This document shows, piece after piece, positions 1-29,854 of a stretch of DNA of 64,000 bases. The DNA is from a virus. Every line of letters begins with the position of its first letter. Positions within the stretch are counted from its first letter, which is position 1. The notes beneath the pieces were generated by a model. The model saw only the letters and a list, made by a program, of their open reading frames with translations. It searched no databases and had not been told where the DNA came from. The translations under genes and the position numbers were made by a program. The DNA lies in the IMG/VR virus record IMGVR_UViG_3300030099_006908, positions 1-64,000 of that record; one strand, written 5' to 3'.

Positions 1-6
1 CTTCAT

Positions 7-42
7 GGGAGGCGGGGATTTTCCCCGCTTCCCCCCTTTTTT
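7..42 (+). terminator. Rho-independent terminator
   Basis: GGGAGGCGGGGA/TCCCCGCTTCCC stem followed by a T-tract. Confidence 0.8.
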
Positions 43-49
43 ATTAAAG

Positions 50-78
50 TTGACAGGGTTGGCTTGTCGATGTATAAT
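50..78 (+). promoter_or_regulatory. sigma70-type promoter
   Basis: Perfect TTGACA-N17-TATAAT. Confidence 0.85.
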
Positions 79-99
79 AGGGGATTGGAGGCTCTGCCT

Positions 100-186
100 A
101 TGAATGAAGGTTGGTTGTTGTTAATTGGTTTACTTGGTGTTATAGCTGGTTGTCTTGAATCTATTAGGGGAGATATAGAAAGATGA
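100..186 (+). CDS. small membrane peptide (28 aa, MNEGWLLLIGLLGVIAGC...)
   Basis: GGAGG SD, hydrophobic stretch, stop overlaps next ATG (ATGA); not in ORF track. Confidence 0.55.
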   Translation: MNEGWLLLIGLLGVIAGCLESIRGDIER

Positions 187-626
187 AAAAGGTTTTCGTA
201 TATTACAATTTGCACAAGCACAAATGGTCCGTGAAGGATGTAAAAACAGGTCGTGTAATTGGTCATTATTACGATATATCGCTTTATAACGCCAAGTTCA
301 AAGTAAGTGAGGCCGGAAGGGCTCGCGTATTAAAAGAGAAGCGTAAAAACGTGCATGCGGGCGTTGAGGGCTATCTGACTAAGCATACCCTACCTCGAAA
401 AATGGACGGCACGATTCTCTGGGCGTCTCAATCGGAGCGGCACAAGGTAACGTACGACCCCTATAAGTACGCTACCTTCGTTGCCGGTCCAGATAAAAAG
501 CCTATCCACGAAGCCTACTTTGTGAGAATGGTGGCCTACGGTACGAACTGGGGCGGTAAAGGGGAGTATCATGCCCCAGATGTTACAGCGACAGTGCCGG
601 TGGTGAAGGGCCTGATAACTGCTTGA
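183..626 (+). CDS. conserved phage hypothetical protein
   Basis: 147 aa, GGAG SD; VYYNLHK..WSVK and KRKNVHA motifs typical of a phage family of unknown function. Confidence 0.8.
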   Translation: MKKVFVYYNLHKHKWSVKDVKTGRVIGHYYDISLYNAKFKVSEAGRARVLKEKRKNVHAGVEGYLTKHTLPRKMDGTILWASQSERHKVTYDPYKYATFVAGPDKKPIHEAYFVRMVAYGTNWGGKGEYHAPDVTATVPVVKGLITA

Positions 627-633
627 AATAAAT

Positions 634-720
634 GAATTGGGGATAAGCAGCTATCCTCGAATGTTACGGGCTCAGAGATAGCCGCACACGCAGGCTCGTA
701 ACTTCCCCGATTCTTTTTTT
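634..720 (+). ncRNA. structured non-coding element with possible pseudoknot, ending in a U-tract
   Basis: Stems 634-643/704-713 and 663-671/694-702; GCTATC (650-655) complementary to loop GATAGC (677-682). Confidence 0.5.
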
Positions 721-721
721 C

Positions 722-801
722 CTAAACCCTTATGGCGTAAGGACTTAGGGGGCGCCGGGCCGCCGCGCCAAACGTAAACTGTGTGATAACAACGACTTAC
801 G
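722..801. promoter_or_regulatory. paired imperfect palindromic protein-binding sites
   Basis: Two TAAAC-N14-GACTTA sites at 723-747 and 775-799, separated by a GC-rich spacer. Confidence 0.55.
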
Positions 802-829
802 TTGACTAATTCTAAAGTTTTGGTACAAT
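802..829 (+). promoter_or_regulatory. sigma70-type promoter for tRNA-Arg
   Basis: TTGACT-N16-TACAAT with TG extension. Confidence 0.65.
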
Positions 830-848
830 ATAACCGATAAAGATAAAT

Positions 849-921
849 GCACCTGTAGCTCAATGGATAGAGCATCTGACTTCTAATCAGAGGGTTGCAG
901 GTTCGAATCCTGCCAGGTGTA
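849..921 (+). tRNA. tRNA-Arg(UCU)
   Basis: Canonical cloverleaf, anticodon loop CTTCTAA, GGTTCGAATCC T-arm; CCA not encoded. Confidence 0.97.
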
Positions 922-1095
922 CTACCCGTACCACCCCCATGGTGGTCATAGTGATAGTCAGCGAAATTTTACATCATGTGTGAATAGTCTGGCATAATTT
1001 ATAGCAGAGGAAATGAATTAGGGAAATGTTTTTGTCTCGCCCAATCAATCATCATTGGCAATCGTTGGTAGTCAGCGAAAGTCTGGGGCATCTGA

Positions 1096-1169
1096 GGGCA
1101 TTTAGCTCAGTTGGTTAGAGCGTCTCGTTGACGTCGAGAAGGTCATTGGTTCGAATCCAGTAATGCCCA
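1096..1169 (+). tRNA. tRNA-Val(GAC)
   Basis: Canonical cloverleaf, anticodon loop TTGACGT. Confidence 0.97.
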
Positions 1170-1280
1170 TTTGAGAGAATAAGAATGATTGTGGCAAGGA
1201 AATGCGCATGAGTGTGTGTCTCACGCAACCTAACAACATTGCGGTCATGGCGATAGTTAGCGAAATTTTAGGGCCTGGGG

Positions 1281-1308
1281 TTGACAAAGCAGGAAGACGG
1301 GCTATAAT
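1281..1308 (+). promoter_or_regulatory. sigma70-type promoter
   Basis: TTGACA-N16-TATAAT. Confidence 0.85.
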
Positions 1309-1314
1309 ATTATT

Positions 1315-1430
1315 GGTGAGCCTCGCGGGCGCAGACTACATTGCCAAACGGTGAGTAGTCTGTCGCTCCATCGGACATAGGTACTTGCCGGTGACTGTTC
1401 AGGTCTAACGTGAGTACCGTGTCCATTTTT
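1315..1430 (+). ncRNA. twin-hairpin ncRNA or 5' leader
   Basis: Hairpins 1327-1368 and 1373-1424 share TAC(A)TTGCC and AACG(G)TGAGTA arms; promoter upstream, T-tract downstream. Confidence 0.6.
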
Positions 1431-1444
1431 TGAGGAGATATAAA

Positions 1445-1642
1445 ATGAAGAAGTTGGTATTATTCCTGCTAATAAGTGTAGTCGCTGTCGAAAGCGGTTA
1501 CGCTTTTATTTTTGGTGGTGGGGCATGGAGGCGTCATTACAGGAGACATAGAAGGGGTGCATTGTATAGTGCAGAGAAGGTAGTCGGACCTCCATCTTTG
1601 CAGGCGGTTAGAGATGCCGTAGATGAGGAAATAAGGAGGTAA
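1445..1642 (+). CDS. small secreted Arg-rich protein
   Basis: GAGGAG SD before ATG 1445; signal-peptide-like MKKLVLFLL...YA; stop overlaps the tRNA-Ile 5' end. Confidence 0.7.
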   Translation: MKKLVLFLLISVVAVESGYAFIFGGGAWRRHYRRHRRGALYSAEKVVGPPSLQAVRDAVDEEIRR

Positions 1643-1710
1643 AGGTAAGCTGGTTGCATCCGGCGCTCTTATAAGGCGCTATTAGTCTGGTTCGATTCCA
1701 GATACCTCTA
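1635..1710 (+). tRNA. tRNA-Ile(UAU), non-canonical D-arm
   Basis: Acceptor GGAGGTA/TACCTCT+A; anticodon stem GCGCT/GGCGC with loop CTTATAA; T-arm TCTGG-TTCGATT-CCAGA. Confidence 0.85.
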
Positions 1711-1782
1711 CTGGGTAATTTACTTCCTGATAGAAAGGAGGTGGGATTACGTCTAAGGATTGGTCATCCTGTCTAATAGACT

Positions 1783-1834
1783 GGCCCGCAGGGTTTTATT
1801 GTATCAAATAAGAACCTGTAGGGCCTCTTTTTTT
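1783..1834 (+). terminator. long-stem terminator
   Basis: GGCCCGCAGGGTTTTATT/AATAAGAACCTGTAGGGCC plus T7. Confidence 0.7.
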
Positions 1835-1874
1835 GTCTCAGCTAAACGAACCAATTTGTCGTGATTGGTCATAG

Positions 1875-1988
1875 TCAGCGTAATTTTAGAGCAGGCAGAA
1901 TAAAACGTGGGGGCGTGGAAAGGTTAGTGGTAAGACTAGGACAAGCCCCCAAAGCCATCGCTATGATAACTCTCCACTTTCTTGTCAT
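1875..1988 (-). CDS. possible 37-aa peptide (MTRKWRVIIAMALGAC...)
   Basis: Lies downstream of a minus-strand consensus promoter; no clear SD. Confidence 0.3.
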   Translation of the reverse strand: MTRKWRVIIAMALGACPSLTTNLSTPPRFILPALKLR

Positions 1989-2007
1989 AGAATGTGATTC
2001 TAAATAT

Positions 2008-2035
2008 ATTATAAACCAAAACACAAAATTGTCAA
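2008..2035 (-). promoter_or_regulatory. sigma70-type promoter (minus strand)
   Basis: TTGACA-N16-TATAAT on the reverse complement. Confidence 0.8.
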
Positions 2036-2475
2036 CTAAAAAACTGGCTGGTAAAAAAGTGTGTACCTTGCCATTGGCTTAATAGAGAGAATACAGAACT
2101 GCAATAGCAGGTAGAATATGAGTGGAGGCATAAACCACATAGTAATAATCTATACCCCTCTGCTATCGGCGGCAGCGTGTATATGATAATCTATACCTGA
2201 ATAGTAAATCTATATTCCCCCCCTGGCAATTTTGCTGCAAAAAAAGAGAACAAAACCGACTTCCCATATCTGATAAAAGACAGTATATGAGCCTAGAGCC
2301 AGGGTTTCTCCACACTCTCTAGGATTACAATGATATGAAATGTCAAGCTATCCACAAGTCCACTCATATCAGAGCGTATATGCCCCAACGAATTAACGGC
2401 GGGCGAGGTATACCAATTTTCAGCACTCAGGTCTGTTGTAGGTTTGGCACTTATAACCTGTGGGCAAATGAGGCC

Positions 2476-2655
2476 CTATTTTCTTCTTCTTCTTTTTCTT
2501 TTCATCCGACTAGATGGAGGCGACCATCCATACAATTTCTTCCACTCTTGTTTCTCTTTATTAGAAACACCATACTGAGCGTTCTGTGCCTTCTCCCTAC
2601 GGGGATTGGTTATCCCGTTCATGGAAGTGCCGGTTTTTTTGTTTTTTCTTGGCAT
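2476..2655 (-). CDS. small very basic protein, probably leaderless
   Basis: MPRKNKK...RKRRRRK; ATG 7 nt after the TATAAT of a minus-strand promoter. Confidence 0.7.
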   Translation of the reverse strand: MPRKNKKTGTSMNGITNPRREKAQNAQYGVSNKEKQEWKKLYGWSPPSSRMKRKRRRRK

Positions 2656-2662
2656 ATAGAGT

Positions 2663-2690
2663 ATTATAGTCCACTTTTCTTTTCTGTCAA
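2663..2690 (-). promoter_or_regulatory. sigma70-type promoter (minus strand), one of a divergent pair
   Basis: TTGACA-N16-TATAAT on the reverse complement. Confidence 0.85.
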
Positions 2691-2703
2691 GGCAAAAAAT
2701 AGC

Positions 2704-2731
2704 TTGACACATACATTCTTCCTGCTATAAT
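2704..2731 (+). promoter_or_regulatory. sigma70-type promoter, one of a divergent pair
   Basis: TTGACA-N16-TATAAT. Confidence 0.85.
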
Positions 2732-3002
2732 TACATAGAAACACGCCCTTTTACGGGTTTACGAAACAAAATTGTGGGTTTTGAACCCCATTTGCACGTT
2801 TAAGCGGCAACTTTGCGGGTTTTTGGCCCATTTGTATGCTCGTTGTGTAGTGCCGAGGTTGAAGCATTTATTCTGTTAATTCATACCTAATCTTCTTCCT
2901 CGCCTACACTTCTATTATAGTGTATACTATACTACCTATTCATTGTATGTCTATTATGGGTAATATAGAAAGCCATAGAAAAATAAAGAAAGGGTAAGAA
3001 AA

Positions 3003-3173
3003 ATGGAGAAAAATATACAAATAACTCTTTGCCGTGGACAAGGATGTTGTCCTGTCGTAACTATTTCTGAAAAAGGTGCGAAAATTACTGATGATAATGG
3101 TGGTGAAGTGACGATAACTAATGTAGAGTTAAGTATTCTAAAAGAAAAGCTAAATGAGCTTGACAACGTATAA
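3003..3173 (+). CDS. small hypothetical protein (MEKNIQITLCRGQGCCPVV...)
   Basis: 56-aa ORF read by eye; C-x4-CCP motif. Confidence 0.65.
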   Translation: MEKNIQITLCRGQGCCPVVTISEKGAKITDDNGGEVTITNVELSILKEKLNELDNV

Positions 3174-3187
3174 TCATCTGTTACAAT
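3160..3187 (+). promoter_or_regulatory. sigma70-type promoter
   Basis: TTGACA-N16-TACAAT. Confidence 0.75.
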
Positions 3188-3193
3188 TAGGAG

Positions 3194-3308
3194 CATGAGG
3201 CTGAGTGGTGGCTTGCAATCAAGGGTCCAGTTGCGCCACACTGAACGGTATTATGTATAAGTTGTCCAAGACACTTGCTAGCAAACATAACGCCTGCCTC
3301 ATTTTTTT
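3194..3308 (+). ncRNA. putative ~110-nt three-way-junction small RNA
   Basis: Own promoter; closing stem ATGAGGC/GCCTCAT plus T7; internal stems GTGGTG/CGCCAC and TTATGT/ACATAA. Confidence 0.6.
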
Positions 3309-3323
3309 ACTAAAGGTTATTTT

Positions 3324-3431
3324 ATGAAGGAAAAGCTAAAAGAAATTTTTGTTCTTGCTACGGTTATATTTGCAGCCGTAGGAATAGGTGCAGTGGTTTA
3401 TGCGATTGTTGAGCTAATTGCACTTCGATGA
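3324..3431 (+). CDS. small membrane protein
   Basis: MKEKLKEIFVLATVIFAAVGIGAVVYAIVELIALR, one TM segment. Confidence 0.55.
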   Translation: MKEKLKEIFVLATVIFAAVGIGAVVYAIVELIALR

Positions 3432-3509
3432 TAGACGACCTTCCTATATGGCTGATTACAGTCAGACTTTTACCGTTTATAATATATGGCATTTACTTGG
3501 GAGTGATAT

Positions 3510-3824
3510 ATGCGAAACCATCCAGACAATAAGTATATCTGGGGAGCAGAGGAAATCCTTATTCTAGGTGATGAACGTCTTGACTATATTCACCAGTTTA
3601 AGGGATACGAGACCGATAAGGGGTGGAACATAACCGTACAGGCTCTTATTCGTACAAAATTCCAGGCATATAAATGGGGGACGACTCGTAGGTACTTCAA
3701 GAAAGACAGATTCCCTCACGCTAATACTGTCAAACAAGTAATTCAGGAAGTCGTAAATCTTCCCTATATGATTGACCCTCTCACTAGAGAATATGAAGGA
3801 TATAAAGATGCAATTAAATCTTGA
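3510..3824 (+). CDS. hypothetical protein
   Basis: 104-aa ORF with GGAG SD. Confidence 0.75.
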   Translation: MRNHPDNKYIWGAEEILILGDERLDYIHQFKGYETDKGWNITVQALIRTKFQAYKWGTTRRYFKKDRFPHANTVKQVIQEVVNLPYMIDPLTREYEGYKDAIKS

Positions 3825-3978
3825 TATAAGCACCATAATCATGGTGTTCTGTCTGTACGGTGTATGGACTTTCAGTAAAGATATTGGTCACTTAATTTGT
3901 GACGTTATATTAAAAGTCTGGAAGGCCAACAATGAGCAAGAGAAATCTGAACCTGAGCAATCTGTTCCTAGCATTTAG
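3808..3978 (+). CDS. small membrane protein
   Basis: Hydrophobic segment; overlaps neighbours in operon fashion. Confidence 0.55.
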   Translation: MQLNLDISTIIMVFCLYGVWTFSKDIGHLICDVILKVWKANNEQEKSEPEQSVPSI

Positions 3979-4057
3979 TACTATTACATTATACATACTT
4001 TTCGTTGGGGGAATAATATACTTCAAATGTTTTTAGGATTCTTTTGGGAGAGAGGAT

Positions 4058-4711
4058 ATGGAATTGGATTTTGGAAATGTCGAGCAGAAGATAAACTCTG
4101 TTAGACAGTCTACGGTTGACCGTTACTGTGACTATTGGTACGGTATCGAGCCGCGAAGCACAGAGGATAAGTGGCGACGATGGTTGTTTGCCTTTGTATC
4201 TATTCGCGCCCAATGGAAGGCGAATAAAGAGTCCTACCGCATGTTAGCCGGTGAAAATTGGCAGACTAAAGATGAACTGTCTAAGATACTCCACGACTCT
4301 CGAATTGGATTGGTTCCGATGCGTGAGCGAGCTATCTGGGAGTTTACGCAGGAAGTAAAAAAGGATAAGTCTATCATCGAACCAGAACTGGACGATACAT
4401 GGCAAACATGGAGAAATAGGTTAGTCGATAAATTCTTTGGGATTGGATTAGCCAAAGTATCTTTTGCGATGGAAATGTGCTACCCGTTGTATTGTGGAGT
4501 TGTTTGTCTGGATACGCATATTCTACGAATGTATGGCGTTGACCCTCGCAAGGGTTGCGGCAAGGCTTTATATGAGGAAATGGAGGCACATTGGTTAAAA
4601 ATTTGTCTTGACAAGGGGTATCCATCTGCTATAACTAGACATATCCTATGGGATAAGATTCAGAACAAGCGGAATACAAGATACTGGTCGCATGTATTGG
4701 AGGCAGCATAA
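4058..4711 (+). CDS. HhH-family DNA glycosylase (Ogg/8-oxoguanine glycosylase-like)
   Basis: HhH motif FGIGLAKVSF and downstream VCLDTHILR (catalytic Lys/Asp pattern of Ogg2-type enzymes). Confidence 0.75.
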   Translation: MELDFGNVEQKINSVRQSTVDRYCDYWYGIEPRSTEDKWRRWLFAFVSIRAQWKANKESYRMLAGENWQTKDELSKILHDSRIGLVPMRERAIWEFTQEVKKDKSIIEPELDDTWQTWRNRLVDKFFGIGLAKVSFAMEMCYPLYCGVVCLDTHILRMYGVDPRKGCGKALYEEMEAHWLKICLDKGYPSAITRHILWDKIQNKRNTRYWSHVLEAA

Positions 4712-8104: not shown

Positions 8105-8132
8105 TTGACAAGTGCCGATAATCATTTATAAT
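8105..8132 (+). promoter_or_regulatory. sigma70-type promoter with CGATAA spacer motif
   Basis: TTGACA-AGTGCCGATAATCATT-TATAAT; 26/28 identical to 5632-5659. Confidence 0.85.
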
Positions 8133-8181: not shown

Positions 8182-10431
8182 ATGAAAATCGCACAGGATT
8201 ACGGTAAGACTAGGACAAACGGGGCAGTGGTAAAAGGTTCGTTCACTATGGACGAATCACCAGAGGCGTTCGAGATTCTTTCGGACGGTCTTTATCCAAA
8301 CAAAATCAAAGCGGTTGTGCGTGAGCTATCCACAAACGCTGTAGAGTCTCATATCACCAGACATAAACAACTTACTGGTGAAGAAATTACGCAAGAGGTC
8401 ATTGACTCTCTGCCACAGTTTGAGATTCATCTTCCGACGACTATGGAACCTCATTTCTCTATACGAGATTTTGGTACGGGTCTCAGCCACGACGACATTA
8501 TGAATATGTACACAACGTATTTTCGTTCTACCAAGCGAGATACGAATGATGTTGGAGGATGTTTGGGCCTTGGCTCCAAGTCTCCCTTTGCATACTCTGA
8601 TAACTTCAGCGTAGTTAGCGTTTACAAAGGACGCAAGACCTGTTACAATCTGACGATTGACAATGGGTATCCTACTCCATCATTTTTCGCCAATGAAGAT
8701 GGTAGTCCGGTATCTGAGGAAACAAGCGAACCGGATGGTCTGCTCATTACCATACCATGCAAGTCCTCTGACGAGTATGAATGGGAGAATGAGGCACAGA
8801 TAGTCTACAAATACTTCCGCATCAAGCCGAAGTTTATCGGCAAGCAAGTACATATTCATTCTCCAGAATATCTGGTAGAGGGTAATGGTTGGGGTATTCG
8901 AGAACGTGACCACAAAGGTCCGCGAGCTATCATGGGTAGCATCGCATACCCCATCAGTCGCAGTTCGATTAAATGTTGGGATGATACCGACAAAAAAGAT
9001 TCTAGTCTTGAGTCTATACTGCGAGCAGACATTGACTTGTACTTTCCACTTGGAGTATTAAAGATTACTCCTAGTCGTGAGGCACTTGGCTACAAACCGT
9101 CTACCCAGAAGAACATCAAGGCTAAGTTGACCTCTGTGTATGACGAATTAAAGCAGCAGGTCAGTACGTCTTTCGATGAGTGCAAGAGTCTATGGGAGAC
9201 TCGATGCCTCGCCAATGAGTTATTCTACATGGGTAATGCCGCGCTACGTTCTGTAGACAACGTATTCGATGTTGCTGCTGTTAAATGGAATGACAAAGAG
9301 ATTGGTGGGCGTGACGTTAATCTGAGAGATTTCCGTGGCGAGGTACACAGATTTTATCTTAAATCCTACTATAGTCAGGAGGATAAGTGTTTCCATCAGA
9401 GGGACTTCACATATCTCACCGCAAATCCAGAGATTGCGTTTATCGAGGCAGATTTGAGTGTGGGTAACTTTGCCAGGGCGAAACATGCCGTAAAGTCTGG
9501 AAAATATACAGAGGTAGTTGTTCTGGAGTGTAATGCTGGAAAAGGCAGACGAAAGGCTTTATTAGACAAGATAGGGATTCTAGAGTCTGATATTGTGAAG
9601 GCCTCTGACCTTGAGCGTCCACCGAAACGTCCGAAGAACAGCGGTGGGGGATTTAGTTCTGGTAAGACTGGTCAACTGTTTGAGATGATTACCAGGACAA
9701 GTAGTGGTTACAATAAGAATGACTACTGGAAAGAACAAACCGTAGACCTAAGTAAAGGCGGCATATATGTTGAAATGACAAGATGGGATGCCAAGGACGA
9801 TACTGGCGAGCTTCTTGCACCAGAAGAAGTAGCAATAGGTGTTAAGAAACTCGAAAAGTGTACCGGCAAAAAAGTCACTGTCTATGGTTGTCGTAGTCAA
9901 ATGGCAAAAGATTTTATCGAGGCAGATAATTGGGAGGACTGGTGGACATACTCTCAGCGTGAAGGCGAGAAGGTCTTTAAGACTAAAAACGCCAAACATG
10001 CTCAGATTGCATCGGTAATCCACAATCTTGGTCAAGAACACCTGATAAGAGACTTAATTGACAGTGTAAATCTCAACAGAGGGGTTCCTAGCCCGATGGT
10101 TGATTTGCTCAAGGACTTCAAGAAGATGGATGAGTCAATCAAGATTCTTGAAAAGCAGGGAGTGTTTTGGAGTGAGATTGTTGCTCTGTCCGAGATTCTG
10201 AACATCAAGATGCCGTCCTTGCCTGAGAGAATGAATCTCAAGTCTAGGTGCGAGTCTATCTTGAAAGAATATCCAACGGTGGTAGCGGTGCATGAGGCAA
10301 GCGGTCGATACTACTACGGTAAAAGCTGGCAGGGTGAGATGCTCAGAAGCGAAAACTGCAAGAAGATGATGGGTGACTACGTTAAGCTGGTTGACGACAA
10401 TCGAGAATGTCAGAAGGGCTTGACAAAGTAG
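8182..10431 (+). CDS. rIIA: RIIA-like protein (GHKL ATPase N-terminal domain)
   Basis: LY.NKIKAVVRELSTNA, IRDFGTGL, GCLGLGSKSPFAY, PSREAL; adjacent to rIIB. Confidence 0.9.
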   Translation: MKIAQDYGKTRTNGAVVKGSFTMDESPEAFEILSDGLYPNKIKAVVRELSTNAVESHITRHKQLTGEEITQEVIDSLPQFEIHLPTTMEPHFSIRDFGTGLSHDDIMNMYTTYFRSTKRDTNDVGGCLGLGSKSPFAYSDNFSVVSVYKGRKTCYNLTIDNGYPTPSFFANEDGSPVSEETSEPDGLLITIPCKSSDEYEWENEAQIVYKYFRIKPKFIGKQVHIHSPEYLVEGNGWGIRERDHKGPRAIMGSIAYPISRSSIKCWDDTDKKDSSLESILRADIDLYFPLGVLKITPSREALGYKPSTQKNIKAKLTSVYDELKQQVSTSFDECKSLWETRCLANELFYMGNAALRSVDNVFDVAAVKWNDKEIGGRDVNLRDFRGEVHRFYLKSYYSQEDKCFHQRDFTYLTANPEIAFIEADLSVGNFARAKHAVKSGKYTEVVVLECNAGKGRRKALLDKIGILESDIVKASDLERPPKRPKNSGGGFSSGKTGQLFEMITRTSSGYNKNDYWKEQTVDLSKGGIYVEMTRWDAKDDTGELLAPEEVAIGVKKLEKCTGKKVTVYGCRSQMAKDFIEADNWEDWWTYSQREGEKVFKTKNAKHAQIASVIHNLGQEHLIRDLIDSVNLNRGVPSPMVDLLKDFKKMDESIKILEKQGVFWSEIVALSEILNIKMPSLPERMNLKSRCESILKEYPTVVAVHEASGRYYYGKSWQGEMLRSENCKKMMGDYVKLVDDNRECQKGLTK

Positions 10432-10496
10432 AATAGTCTAATATAATATAGAGTTAGCGTAAAGTATTAACATTTTTTATGAGGGAGATTTAGGAT

Positions 10497-11348
10497 ATGT
10501 TGAATTACATTTGTTCAGCGAACGGAAACATCACCATCTCGTTTGATGGTCAAGTCAAGTGTGTAGCGAATGACCATGCGAATTATCGCAAGGTGGTCGA
10601 GGCACTAAAGAAGAATGACAAGGAGGCTCTCGGTGAGGCTCTGAACATTCAGAAGGCAGTCACACGGTACATCGGGTCTAGCGATGTAGAGGTCAAAGAT
10701 GGGTGCGTCTTTTATCGAGGCGAGCAAGTCAGAGGCTATGTTGTAGACCGGATTCTCGCCCAGATGCGAGCAGGGTTCGGATACGAGCCAATGTGTGCGT
10801 TTCTTGAGAATATGCACGACAATCCTTCACCAGCATCGGTGGAGCAGTTATTCAAGTTTCTTGAGGACAATGGTCTTGTTCTCACAGATGATGGATGTTT
10901 CCTCGCCTACAAATATGTAGATAAGGGCGAAGATGGAAAGTTCTATGCTAATTGGGCAAACAAGGATGGTACTCACAACGAGTCCGGTCCTGGCTCAGTA
11001 GTTCGTATGCCACGGTCTGAGGTCGAGCATAACCCTGCAAAGAGTTGCGCTCCTGGACTTCACGTTGGCAGCATGGAATATGTCCAAAACAGACAGTGGG
11101 TGATGACCTGCAAGGTCAATCCCAAGCATGTGGTCAGCGTTCCCGACCATGAGTCTGGCAAGATGCGTACTTGTCAGTATGAAGTAATCGAGGTCAATGA
11201 GAATAAAGAGGCCAAACAAGGTCTTATCTACTCAAATGACCTTGGACGTAGCGAACACGCTCCCGATGTTGATTACGAAACTAATGACCATTGGGATTAT
11301 GATGGTGACGACTACGATGATTACTGGGACGACGACTTAGACTACTAA
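10497..11348 (+). CDS. rIIB: RIIB-like protein
   Basis: FLEN...NPS, DGCFLAYK, CAPGLHVG, KVNPKHVVSVP, KMRTCQY. Confidence 0.9.
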   Translation: MLNYICSANGNITISFDGQVKCVANDHANYRKVVEALKKNDKEALGEALNIQKAVTRYIGSSDVEVKDGCVFYRGEQVRGYVVDRILAQMRAGFGYEPMCAFLENMHDNPSPASVEQLFKFLEDNGLVLTDDGCFLAYKYVDKGEDGKFYANWANKDGTHNESGPGSVVRMPRSEVEHNPAKSCAPGLHVGSMEYVQNRQWVMTCKVNPKHVVSVPDHESGKMRTCQYEVIEVNENKEAKQGLIYSNDLGRSEHAPDVDYETNDHWDYDGDDYDDYWDDDLDY

Positions 11349-29025: not shown

Positions 29026-29718
29026 GTGTCTAAGAAAAAGAACACTAATGCTAACAATGGCACTCATCTCAAACAAAATCATCTATCAGCTAAAACACCA
29101 AATCAAAAAGACTACATTAAATCAGTAAAAGATAACCAAGTCGTAATCTGCTCTGGTCCAGCGGGTACGGGAAAAACCCACATAGCAACGTCTATGGCAA
29201 TCATGGGTTTAGTCAGAGAGGAGTATGAAAAGGTTATAATCACGAGACCAATGGTTCAGGCTGGAGAAGATACTGGGTATTTACCTGGAAACATAAGAGA
29301 AAAAACCGCACCCTACCTTAGACCTATATTTGATGAGCTTCTATGCTATATAAGCAACTCTGACATAATAACAATGATGAACTCGGGAGCAATAGAAATA
29401 TGCCCCCTAGCATATATGCGAGGCAGAAACTTCCACCACTGCTTTATAGTGGCCGATGAGTGTCAAAACGCATCAGAAAAACAGCTAATGATGCTATTGA
29501 CAAGGATAGGAAAAGGAAGTAAAATAGTTATGACTGGAGACGCTAGTCAGTCTGACTTGAATTATAGAAATCAAGGAGGTCTGAATGCCTGCATAAATGG
29601 GCTTCAAGCAGTTGAGGGGGTAGGGATTGTAAGCCTTAATACAGAAGATATAGTTAGAGAGCCAATCGTTGAAAGAATTGTCACGGCCATGGAAAAATAT
29701 AATTCAAGTTCCGATTGA
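29026..29718 (+). CDS. phoH: PhoH-family ATPase
   Basis: GPAGTGKT, GYLPG, YMRGRNF, DECQN, TRIG, GD..QSDL. Confidence 0.96.
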   Translation: MSKKKNTNANNGTHLKQNHLSAKTPNQKDYIKSVKDNQVVICSGPAGTGKTHIATSMAIMGLVREEYEKVIITRPMVQAGEDTGYLPGNIREKTAPYLRPIFDELLCYISNSDIITMMNSGAIEICPLAYMRGRNFHHCFIVADECQNASEKQLMMLLTRIGKGSKIVMTGDASQSDLNYRNQGGLNACINGLQAVEGVGIVSLNTEDIVREPIVERIVTAMEKYNSSSD

Positions 29719-29743
29719 CAAATGACGATAACTCTGATATAAT
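29715..29743 (+). promoter_or_regulatory. sigma70-type promoter with CGATAA spacer motif
   Basis: TTGACA-AATGACGATAACTCTGA-TATAAT. Confidence 0.85.
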
Positions 29744-29747
29744 AAAT

Positions 29748-29820
29748 CGCGGGTTGTGGTGTTGGTTCCACCACTGGTCTCATAAATCAGTCTACGCAGG
29801 TTCAATTCCTGTACCCGCAA
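29748..29820 (+). tRNA. tRNA-Met(CAU), initiator-like but atypical
   Basis: CGCGGGT/ACCCGCA+A with C1-A72 mismatch; loop CTCATAA; T-arm GCAGG-TTCAATT-CCTGT. Confidence 0.88.
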
Positions 29821-29854
29821 CTTTTATTCTTAATTTACTGAAGGAGCATTTATC

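Follow-up and report, generated by a model that had tools for sequence, protein, structure and literature searches.

A variable, promoter-dense tRNA region of an uncultured phage with candidate leader, trailer and antisense RNAs

We analysed a 64,000-nucleotide stretch of DNA from a large uncultured marine phage (the window), which starts at base 1 of the 94,845-base IMG/VR record IMGVR_UViG_3300030099_006908 (CheckV completeness 35 %), and describe here its positions 630 to 3310, referred to as the island. Nearly all genes of this phage genome are on the plus strand, and plus-strand open reading frames (ORFs) of at least 60 amino acids cover 31 % of the island compared to 96 % of positions 3311 to 64000. 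Among the tRNA genes and promoters of the island lie at least three elements, named E2, E3 and E6 below, which sequence comparison supports as RNAs conserved at or above the level of the neighbouring protein genes and which fall outside Rfam. Their substitutions preserve pairing, and indels break the reading frames. We consider it somewhat better than an even bet that the island is a variable, promoter-dense early and tRNA region with RNAs that act in cis, as leaders and trailers, and one probable antisense small RNA (sRNA).

Organisation of the island

Relatives were found via a gp82-like gene (183-626) and a gene flanking the island at 4058-4711 (217 amino acids, function unknown, some of its database relatives being labelled 8-oxoguanine DNA glycosylase). 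They comprise an IMG/VR genome of 148,761 bases, G001 (loci L003 and L004), and, from a metagenome scan, a second lineage (L091, L092) and a partial one (L106); these relatives originate in marine metagenomes. Loci with more distantly related copies of the flanking gene lack the island. All comparative statements rest on three genomes, and on four sequences for positions 2660-2870. The features that carry the argument are the following, with promoters scored as hexamer matches (of 12) to the E. coli-like sigma-70 consensus.

1281-1308, plus strand: promoter, 12 of 12, conserved in three genomes
1315-1432, plus strand: E2, candidate 5' leader with two long hairpins, minimum free energy (MFE) -52.8 kcal/mol
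1445-1642, plus strand: ORF of 65 amino acids, signal-peptide-like N-terminus followed by an Arg-rich segment, Shine-Dalgarno (SD) sequence GAGGAG 7 nt before the ATG
1635-1711, plus strand: tRNA-Ile(UAU), called by ARAGORN, atypical (A8, weak D-stem, no encoded CCA)
1712-1836, plus strand: E3, candidate trailer 3' of tRNA-Ile in the same transcript, three hairpins of which the third and U7 form a predicted intrinsic terminator
2035-2008, minus strand: promoter, 12 of 12, predicted to drive E6, both hexamers invariant in three genomes
about 2001-1893, minus strand: E6, RNA candidate of about 105 nt, promoter and transcript sequence conserved
8203-8218, plus strand: putative target of E6, a perfect 16-nt complement in codons 8-13 of rIIA (+22 to +37)

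The remaining promoters and tRNA genes of the island are:

802-829, plus strand: promoter-like site, 10 of 12 with a TG-extended -10, about 13 nt upstream of tRNA-Arg, kept in relatives
849-922, plus strand: tRNA-Arg(UCU), called by ARAGORN, Rfam tRNA score 76.7 bits, present in L004 and L091
1096-1169, plus strand: tRNA-Val(GAC), called by ARAGORN and Rfam, present in L091, absent or degraded in L004
2690-2663, minus strand: promoter, 12 of 12, conserved in four sequences
2704-2731, plus strand: promoter, 12 of 12, conserved in four sequences
3160-3187, plus strand: promoter, 11 of 12

The perfect promoters at 2690-2663 and 2704-2731 stand back to back and diverge (2663-2731). The 94.8-kb genome holds 30 sites with at least 11 matches, five of them within the 2.7 kb of the island; on the minus strand only three such sites exist, and two are in the island. 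Because sites of this type are spread all along the genome, we read them from their sequence as the normal promoters of the phage. The region would be built from short units transcribed by the host RNA polymerase.

The original prediction had pictured the island as mostly non-coding amid dense genes, with six near-consensus promoters on both strands, three tRNAs and five structured or repeated elements of no known RNA family, four of which end in U-tracts. The low coding density is borne out, and the ORFs that make up the 31 % are mostly not conserved in relatives, but two small ORFs (1445-1642, 65 amino acids, and 3003-3173, 56 amino acids) are conserved there as proteins. All six promoter sites were recovered, five of them with at least 11 matches. 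ARAGORN calls Arg-UCU, Val-GAC and Ile-UAU, and Rfam confirms the first two: the only hits of Rfam 15 at or above the gathering threshold in the island are tRNA (849-921 and 1096-1169). Up to an E value of 10, Rfam gave beyond tRNA only weak rows at chance level and no CRISPR-DR family, in agreement with elements that belong to no known family. U-tracts do lie 3' of 634-720, 1315-1430, 1715-1834 and 3194-3308; from sequence and fold, the stable hairpin plus U-tract of an intrinsic terminator is predicted for E1 (U7), E2 (U6), E3 (U7) and E5 (U7, with a long-range closing stem). The claim of structure holds for part of the list: by MFE relative to dinucleotide shuffles, no more than two of the five have clear structure (1315-1432, z -5.9, and 1712-1836, z -4.8), and the other three fold weakly (627-722, z -1.8; 2738-2840, z -1.6; 3193-3310, z -1.1). 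The list was also incomplete, lacking the minus-strand candidate E6 and a dispersed repeat in four copies. Degenerate tRNAs as the origin of E2, E3 and E5 found no support in a low-threshold ARAGORN run, which gave 23 weak calls scattered over both strands.

In the compared sequences the island is a patchwork of short transcription units, with cassettes gained and lost from one close relative to the next. Its variable pieces are E1, tRNA-Val, an insertion at 2303-2662 and E5, and its stable conserved non-coding parts are E2, the tRNA-Ile/E3 unit and E6. The proposed non-coding elements would be of four kinds: a cis-acting leader (E2), a tRNA trailer (E3), an antisense RNA (E6) and ordinary or strain-specific elements (E1, E4 and E5).

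No close cultured relative of the phage was found. Its genome encodes a ribonucleotide reductase and a Pol III alpha-type polymerase, the latter at most 34 % identical to its best match among GenBank phages. A distant blastn search of positions 1-4000 against GenBank phages (50,697 records) returned tRNA-Arg as the sole match.

Three conserved RNA candidates

E2 begins at the predicted start site of the perfect promoter at 1281-1308. Its second hairpin, followed by U6, is terminator-like and is succeeded directly by GAGGAG and the ATG of the 65-amino-acid ORF. Across the three genomes 95 % of the pair cells are paired, compared to 35-43 % in a control with the partners slid. Of the changes, 10 affect one side of a pair and are wobble-compatible, and 2 are double; in the terminator stem two pairs are changed on both sides, and in helix 2 the varying pairs (6 of 6) differ by transitions. 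Because all of these retain G-U or A-U, the helix 2 changes, as judged from the alignment, make sense only for an RNA of the plus strand. Hairpin 1 has lost its top in L004 and retained its stem, and the terminator hairpin has a large loop that hardly varies. A covariance model of E2 finds one copy per genome and none further in two phage genomes or 20 more distant loci, and an exact-pattern scan of IMG/VR for its loop returned the one close relative only.

The protein downstream of E2 is found in L004 and L091 with its start and Arg-rich segment conserved and its C-terminus variable, and on this comparison we regard the ORF as a bona fide gene; it has no match in Pfam or PHROG. In its sequence FIFGGG is preceded by an Ala at -1, a segment rich in Arg and His is present, and the C-terminus is 45 residues longer in L091. 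Transcription from the promoter at 1281 would yield a two-hairpin leader of about 115 nt whose second hairpin and U-tract would form a promoter-proximal terminator, located between promoter and first gene, where attenuators and riboswitch-type leaders have theirs in combination with a mutually exclusive antiterminator fold or a pocket for a ligand or factor. Read-through of this terminator would be required for expression of the exported 65-amino-acid protein, tRNA-Ile(UAU) and E3. Most likely, then, E2 gates the downstream unit and also gives a short stable RNA.

The tRNA-Ile(UAU) gene overlaps the stop codon of the 65-amino-acid ORF, and its best Rfam score (24.4 bits, to tRNA-Sec) is below threshold. 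Two anticodon-stem pairs are changed in a compensatory manner in L091. The D-arm 17-mer GTAAGCTGGTTGCATCC, with A at position 8, is identical in tRNA-Ile(UAU) genes of six other IMG/VR contigs (loci L148-L153), whose acceptor, anticodon and T stems differ freely, and this type of tRNA occurs in one contig only among 185,579 bacterial and archaeal species genomes. Compensatory pairs, a D-arm shared by six viral contigs and a single bacterial contig together argue that this is probably a genuine member of a phage-borne tRNA type.

No promoter separates tRNA-Ile from E3, which lies between the last tRNA of the transcript and the terminator, the position of a 3' external transcribed spacer (3'ETS). 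E3 is 95 % identical to L004 and 88 % to L091, which equals the tRNA and exceeds most nearby coding sequence. Its structure is kept in the relatives, and indels of 1-2 nt between the genomes break every ORF, which on sequence grounds rules out translation. An exact-pattern scan of IMG/VR for E3 returned the one close relative only, and complementarity of E3 to start regions of the phage was not significant. Processing of the tRNA 3' end would release the three hairpins and terminator as a stable RNA, like a bacterial tRNA 3'ETS, and the conservation of E3 suggests a role beyond termination.

E6 is predicted to fold into a three-way structure closed by pairing of its 5' and 3' parts; a GC hairpin with a 28-nt loop is followed by a U-rich tail at the 3' end. 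One stem pair is flipped from G-C to C-G in L004. E6 thus shows at the sequence level what is expected of an sRNA, namely its own promoter, a terminator-like end and no conserved reading frame. Its core is conserved, yet the three genomes read it in three different frames and L091 has ACG for ATG, from which we judge E6 to be non-coding. A covariance model found no further copies in two phage genomes or 20 more distant loci. A minus-strand segment of about 260 nt (2036-2302), which lies downstream of the promoter at 2690-2663, is 56-82 % conserved with no conserved ORF. Positions 2036-2180 of it have a folding z of -2.8 and a U-run at the end, and the segment may be a further minus-strand RNA or a 3' untranslated region.

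Seven elements were screened for perfect complementarity to the plus-strand transcripts of the genome. All but E6 gave 11-12-mers at chance level, and E1 to E5 against start regions gave chance 11-13-mers or GU-rich helices. The hairpin loop of E6 contains a 16-nt seed, UUGUCCUAGUCUUACC, that is perfectly complementary to codons 8-13 of rIIA (8182-10431, 749 amino acids, full-length match to phrog_612 with E 3e-107), a gene with its own 12 of 12 promoter at 8105-8132. Of 2000 shuffles of E6, 6 (0.3 %) gave a match of 16 nt or longer. The rIIA site is identical in G001, and the seed there carries a single substitution that retains a G-U pair and gains one extra flanking pair; only two genomes hold both loci. 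The predicted probability of being unpaired reaches 0.69 in the seed and 0.58 in the rIIA site, compared to an average of 0.44, and the predicted duplex has an energy of -26.3 kcal/mol. The neighbour of rIIA is rIIB (283 amino acids, the two spanning 8182-11348), a short homologue that matches only the C-terminal part of its profile (phrog_609 positions 822-1050).

Because seven elements were screened, we consider the E6-rIIA match suggestive and not conclusive; more weight comes from the position of the seed in a loop, the predicted openness of seed and site, the identity of the site in G001 and the retained G-U pair. E6 is on this basis a probable trans-acting antisense sRNA. Its loop could pair over 16 bp with codons 8-13 of the rIIA mRNA, and this duplex would most likely lower translation or stability of that message. 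Pairing this deep in a coding region usually acts via mRNA decay and not via a block of initiation, and mRNA decay would be the expected route here.

Several results weigh against this interpretation of the three elements. The pairing score observed for E2 is reached by 67 of 500 shuffles in what is, with three sequences, a weak test, and inspection gave no convincing conserved alternative antiterminator pairing. E6 folds only modestly compared to shuffles (z -1.6 to -2.2), and its target is beyond the usual footprint of initiation. Same-strand repeats of 16 nt or longer also turned up in 12 of 1000 random pieces of the genome (1.2 %), to be read with the seven elements screened. Finally, the presence of the island in only three genomes leaves little power for covariation: comparison of homologues did reveal pairing-compatible changes in E2, tRNA-Ile and E6, within that limit.

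A rival explanation is possible though doubtful: that all elements are ordinary transcription punctuation, i.e. leaders, trailers and terminators of early operons with no role in trans, and that the E6-rIIA match arose by chance or duplication. Four elements end in a hairpin and U-tract, consensus promoters occur throughout the genome, E1, E4, E5 and E6 are not significantly structured, and random pieces do share repeats as long as the match. Punctuation leaves unexplained why the non-coding E3 and E6 are conserved at or above protein genes, why E6 has an invariant perfect promoter on an otherwise almost unused strand and why the terminator hairpin of E2 keeps a large invariant loop superfluous for termination. 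It also sits poorly with a match that falls in the hairpin loop of E6 and near a gene start and survives in a second genome by a wobble-compatible change.

Strain-specific and repeated elements

The rest of the island consists of the following features.

634-720, plus strand: E1, hairpin and U7 directly after the gp82-like gene
938-971, 1069-1090, 1237-1270 and 1855-1888: dispersed repeat in four copies, within the window found only in the island
2303-2662, minus strand: strain-specific insertion of about 360 nt, where relatives have 120-150 nt instead
2745-2835, plus strand: E4, set of three short units, palindromes or hairpins of GGG-U-rich-CCC type (TTGTGGGTTTTTGACCCATTTG), located in the leader (about 265 nt) of ORF 3003-3173
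3003-3173, plus strand: ORF of 56 amino acids, protein conserved in L004 and L091, in the Atlas only in unnamed viral clusters
3194-3308, plus strand: E5, unit of about 110 nt behind the promoter at 3160-3187, with a 5'/3' closing stem and U7

E1 is absent from the relatives, where the flanks join directly in L004 and L091, and G001 has no copy elsewhere; it is probably a strain-specific inserted intrinsic terminator. The insertion at 2303-2662, equally without counterpart in the G001 genome, carries a nearly leaderless minus-strand ORF for a very basic protein of 59 amino acids (2476-2655) behind the promoter at 2690-2663, with no family match. E5, followed 3' by the gene of a 35-amino-acid membrane peptide (3324-3431), has no homologue in GenBank phages, in an exact-pattern scan of IMG/VR, in a scan of bacterial genomes or in the relatives. 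These have in its place, behind the same conserved promoter, an unrelated ORF of 45-49 amino acids that is conserved between them. A decayed copy of that ORF was considered as the source of E5, and tblastn shows no trace of it. From these comparisons E5 is a non-homologous cassette replacing a small gene.

We also considered that the RNAs are themselves very small protein genes: a 37-codon frame in E6, a 21-codon frame at the start of E5 and an ATT-initiated frame behind an SD-like sequence in E3. The region does encode several genuine small proteins, the window and L004 keep 36-37 codons open from the same ATG in E6, and both E5 and the ORF in its place start with an ATG about 8 nt after the -10 box and look leaderless. 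No bona fide SD sequence precedes the E6, E5 or E3 frames, however, and the three-frame reading of conserved E6 nucleotides, the ACG of L091 and the indels in E3 make this the least probable of the explanations considered here.

In each copy of the dispersed repeat, a GTCTCA-type 5' end and a 3' end with the core TAGTCAGC are fixed, and the roughly 15-25 nt between them vary. This variable middle part forms a small hairpin whose sequence differs between copies, and the 3' end usually precedes an A/T-rich run. One copy follows tRNA-Arg, two stand on either side of tRNA-Val and one follows the terminator of E3. L004 and L091 have five copies each; in L091 the island contains four of these, and the fifth is some 2 kb upstream. 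A 19-mer of the repeat matched one unrelated contig inside a coding sequence of 1324 amino acids and was set aside as chance. 

A GC-rich element with two similar sites at 722-801 (L004 3142-3218) adjoins the tRNA-Arg promoter upstream and is kept in the relatives; a further copy with 77 % identity lies about 3.3 kb upstream in G001. Elsewhere in the genome, a 12 of 12 promoter within 29715-29821 ends 4 nt before tRNA-Met (29748-29821), so that the primary transcript would start approximately at the mature 5' end of the tRNA.

The three units of E4 are kept in four sequences, with stems of 3-5 bp and a conserved core of about 22 nt. Alifold pairs the units with one another, and the structure is ambiguous. 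The window holds no other copy and no tandem period of E4. A scan with the unit pattern gave 36 single matches in unrelated contigs and missed the true relative, and these were set aside as chance. The units may be either binding sites (DNA palindromes) or weak RNA hairpins.

A role at the DNA level has been considered for the island as a whole, with operators (E4 palindromes and the 722-801 sites), recombination sites for tRNA cassettes (the repeat) or a replication or packaging region. The E4 palindromes are close to two divergent promoters, the repeat flanks a tRNA that is present or absent between genomes, and its copies are unstructured as RNA (z +0.5 and +1.0). We regard this as very unlikely to explain the island: the substitutions of E2 are wobble-compatible on one strand only, the folding energies of E2 and E3 are very low and the terminator-like ends fit a function as RNA.

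Overall reading and known systems

The original prediction had gone further and proposed an RNA arsenal expressed early by host RNA polymerase, with decoys for defence nucleases or toxins, RNA anti-CRISPRs or sponges. We took this to include anti-CRISPRs made of repeat-like units (E4), ToxI-like antitoxin mimics and sponges for host sRNAs (E3). What stands of it are RNAs outside Rfam behind host-type promoters; the uniform arsenal does not stand. Two elements are strain-specific insertions or replacements, two are 5' leaders of genes for small membrane or exported proteins, one is a tRNA trailer and one is the set of palindromic units. As an account of the island, a counter-defence arsenal is very unlikely. 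Strong host-type promoters do suggest early and abundant RNAs, repeated short hairpin-like units make up E4, E3 is organised like a tRNA 3'ETS sponge, and the island shows the hypervariability common in counter-defence loci. Against RNA anti-CRISPRs, neither a CRISPR-DR nor any other Rfam family was matched up to E 10 (a limited test, the repeats of the host not being known), and the E4 hairpins have stems of only 3-5 bp and may equally be DNA palindromes. TRF finds no tandem array of 34-36 nt in 600-3400, as a ToxI-like antitoxin mimic would have. E1 and E5 are features of a single genome. Nothing in these searches supports decoys, RNA anti-CRISPRs or ToxI-like mimics; E3 and E4 may yet have such a role. 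The sole detectable complementarity, the 16 nt to rIIA, points to regulation of a phage gene.

A more far-reaching interpretation, to which we give a slim chance, sees the island as an RNA control hub of a virulent phage with two or three working parts, in which E6 tunes rIIA, E3 sequesters host RNAs or RNA-binding proteins and E4 possibly does likewise. If true, it would combine RNA-level counter-defence with self-regulation, so far undescribed for lytic phages.

Our preferred reading, a variable early and tRNA region with leader and trailer RNAs and one probable antisense sRNA, revises the notion of a uniform arsenal: of the five elements originally listed, two occur in a single genome, and the region encodes small proteins too. 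Virulent phages have yielded few small RNAs, and those located next to tRNA genes (T4 band C/D, PAK_P3 sRNA2) still have no known function; the island adds three conserved candidates outside all RNA families. For E6 there is a concrete and testable target, the start of the message of rIIA, a classic anti-exclusion gene central to escape from abortive infection. Although the phage is uncultured, its E. coli-like consensus promoters make the RNAs and the E6-rIIA pairing testable in a surrogate host.

Promoter-proximal terminator and antitermination RNAs of phages include the lambda PR'-tR' 6S RNA and HK022 put. By analogy, E2 would resemble them as a short transcript of two stem-loops behind a strong promoter with a terminator before the genes. 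E2 differs in having no sequence or family match and no identified Q- or N-like factor or antiterminator fold; the put hairpins, in turn, are not themselves the terminator.

E6 resembles trans-encoded base-pairing sRNAs in its promoter, its terminator-like end, the missing frame and a predicted exposed seed against a start-proximal site. Unlike typical members, it would form 16 contiguous pairs, a longer stretch, and at codons 8-13, not at the SD sequence or start codon. The putative target, rIIA, belongs to the phage itself and lies at a distance of 6.2 kb. In T4, translation of rIIB is regulated by the RegA protein, not by an RNA.

In virulent phages, sRNAs beside tRNAs are represented by PAK_P3 sRNA2, which sits between two phage tRNAs, and by the T4 band C/D RNAs (PMC4933390). 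Like these and PAK_P3 sRNA1, which are RNAs of about 100-140 nt and unknown function among phage tRNAs, E3 lies directly 3' of a tRNA and E6 adjoins. No sequence similarity to the T4 or PAK_P3 RNAs is seen in the search of phage records described above. The PAK_P3 sRNAs are late, whereas the host sigma-70 consensus of the island promoters suggests early expression.

The closest parallel for E3 is 3'ETS-leuZ, an sRNA sponge cut from the 3'ETS of the E. coli glyW-cysT-leuZ operon (doi 10.1101/2021.04.25.441314). Unlike 3'ETS-leuZ, E3 measures about 125 nt with three hairpins. Like it, E3 spans the distance from the last tRNA to an intrinsic terminator, and it appears conserved beyond the need of a mere terminator.

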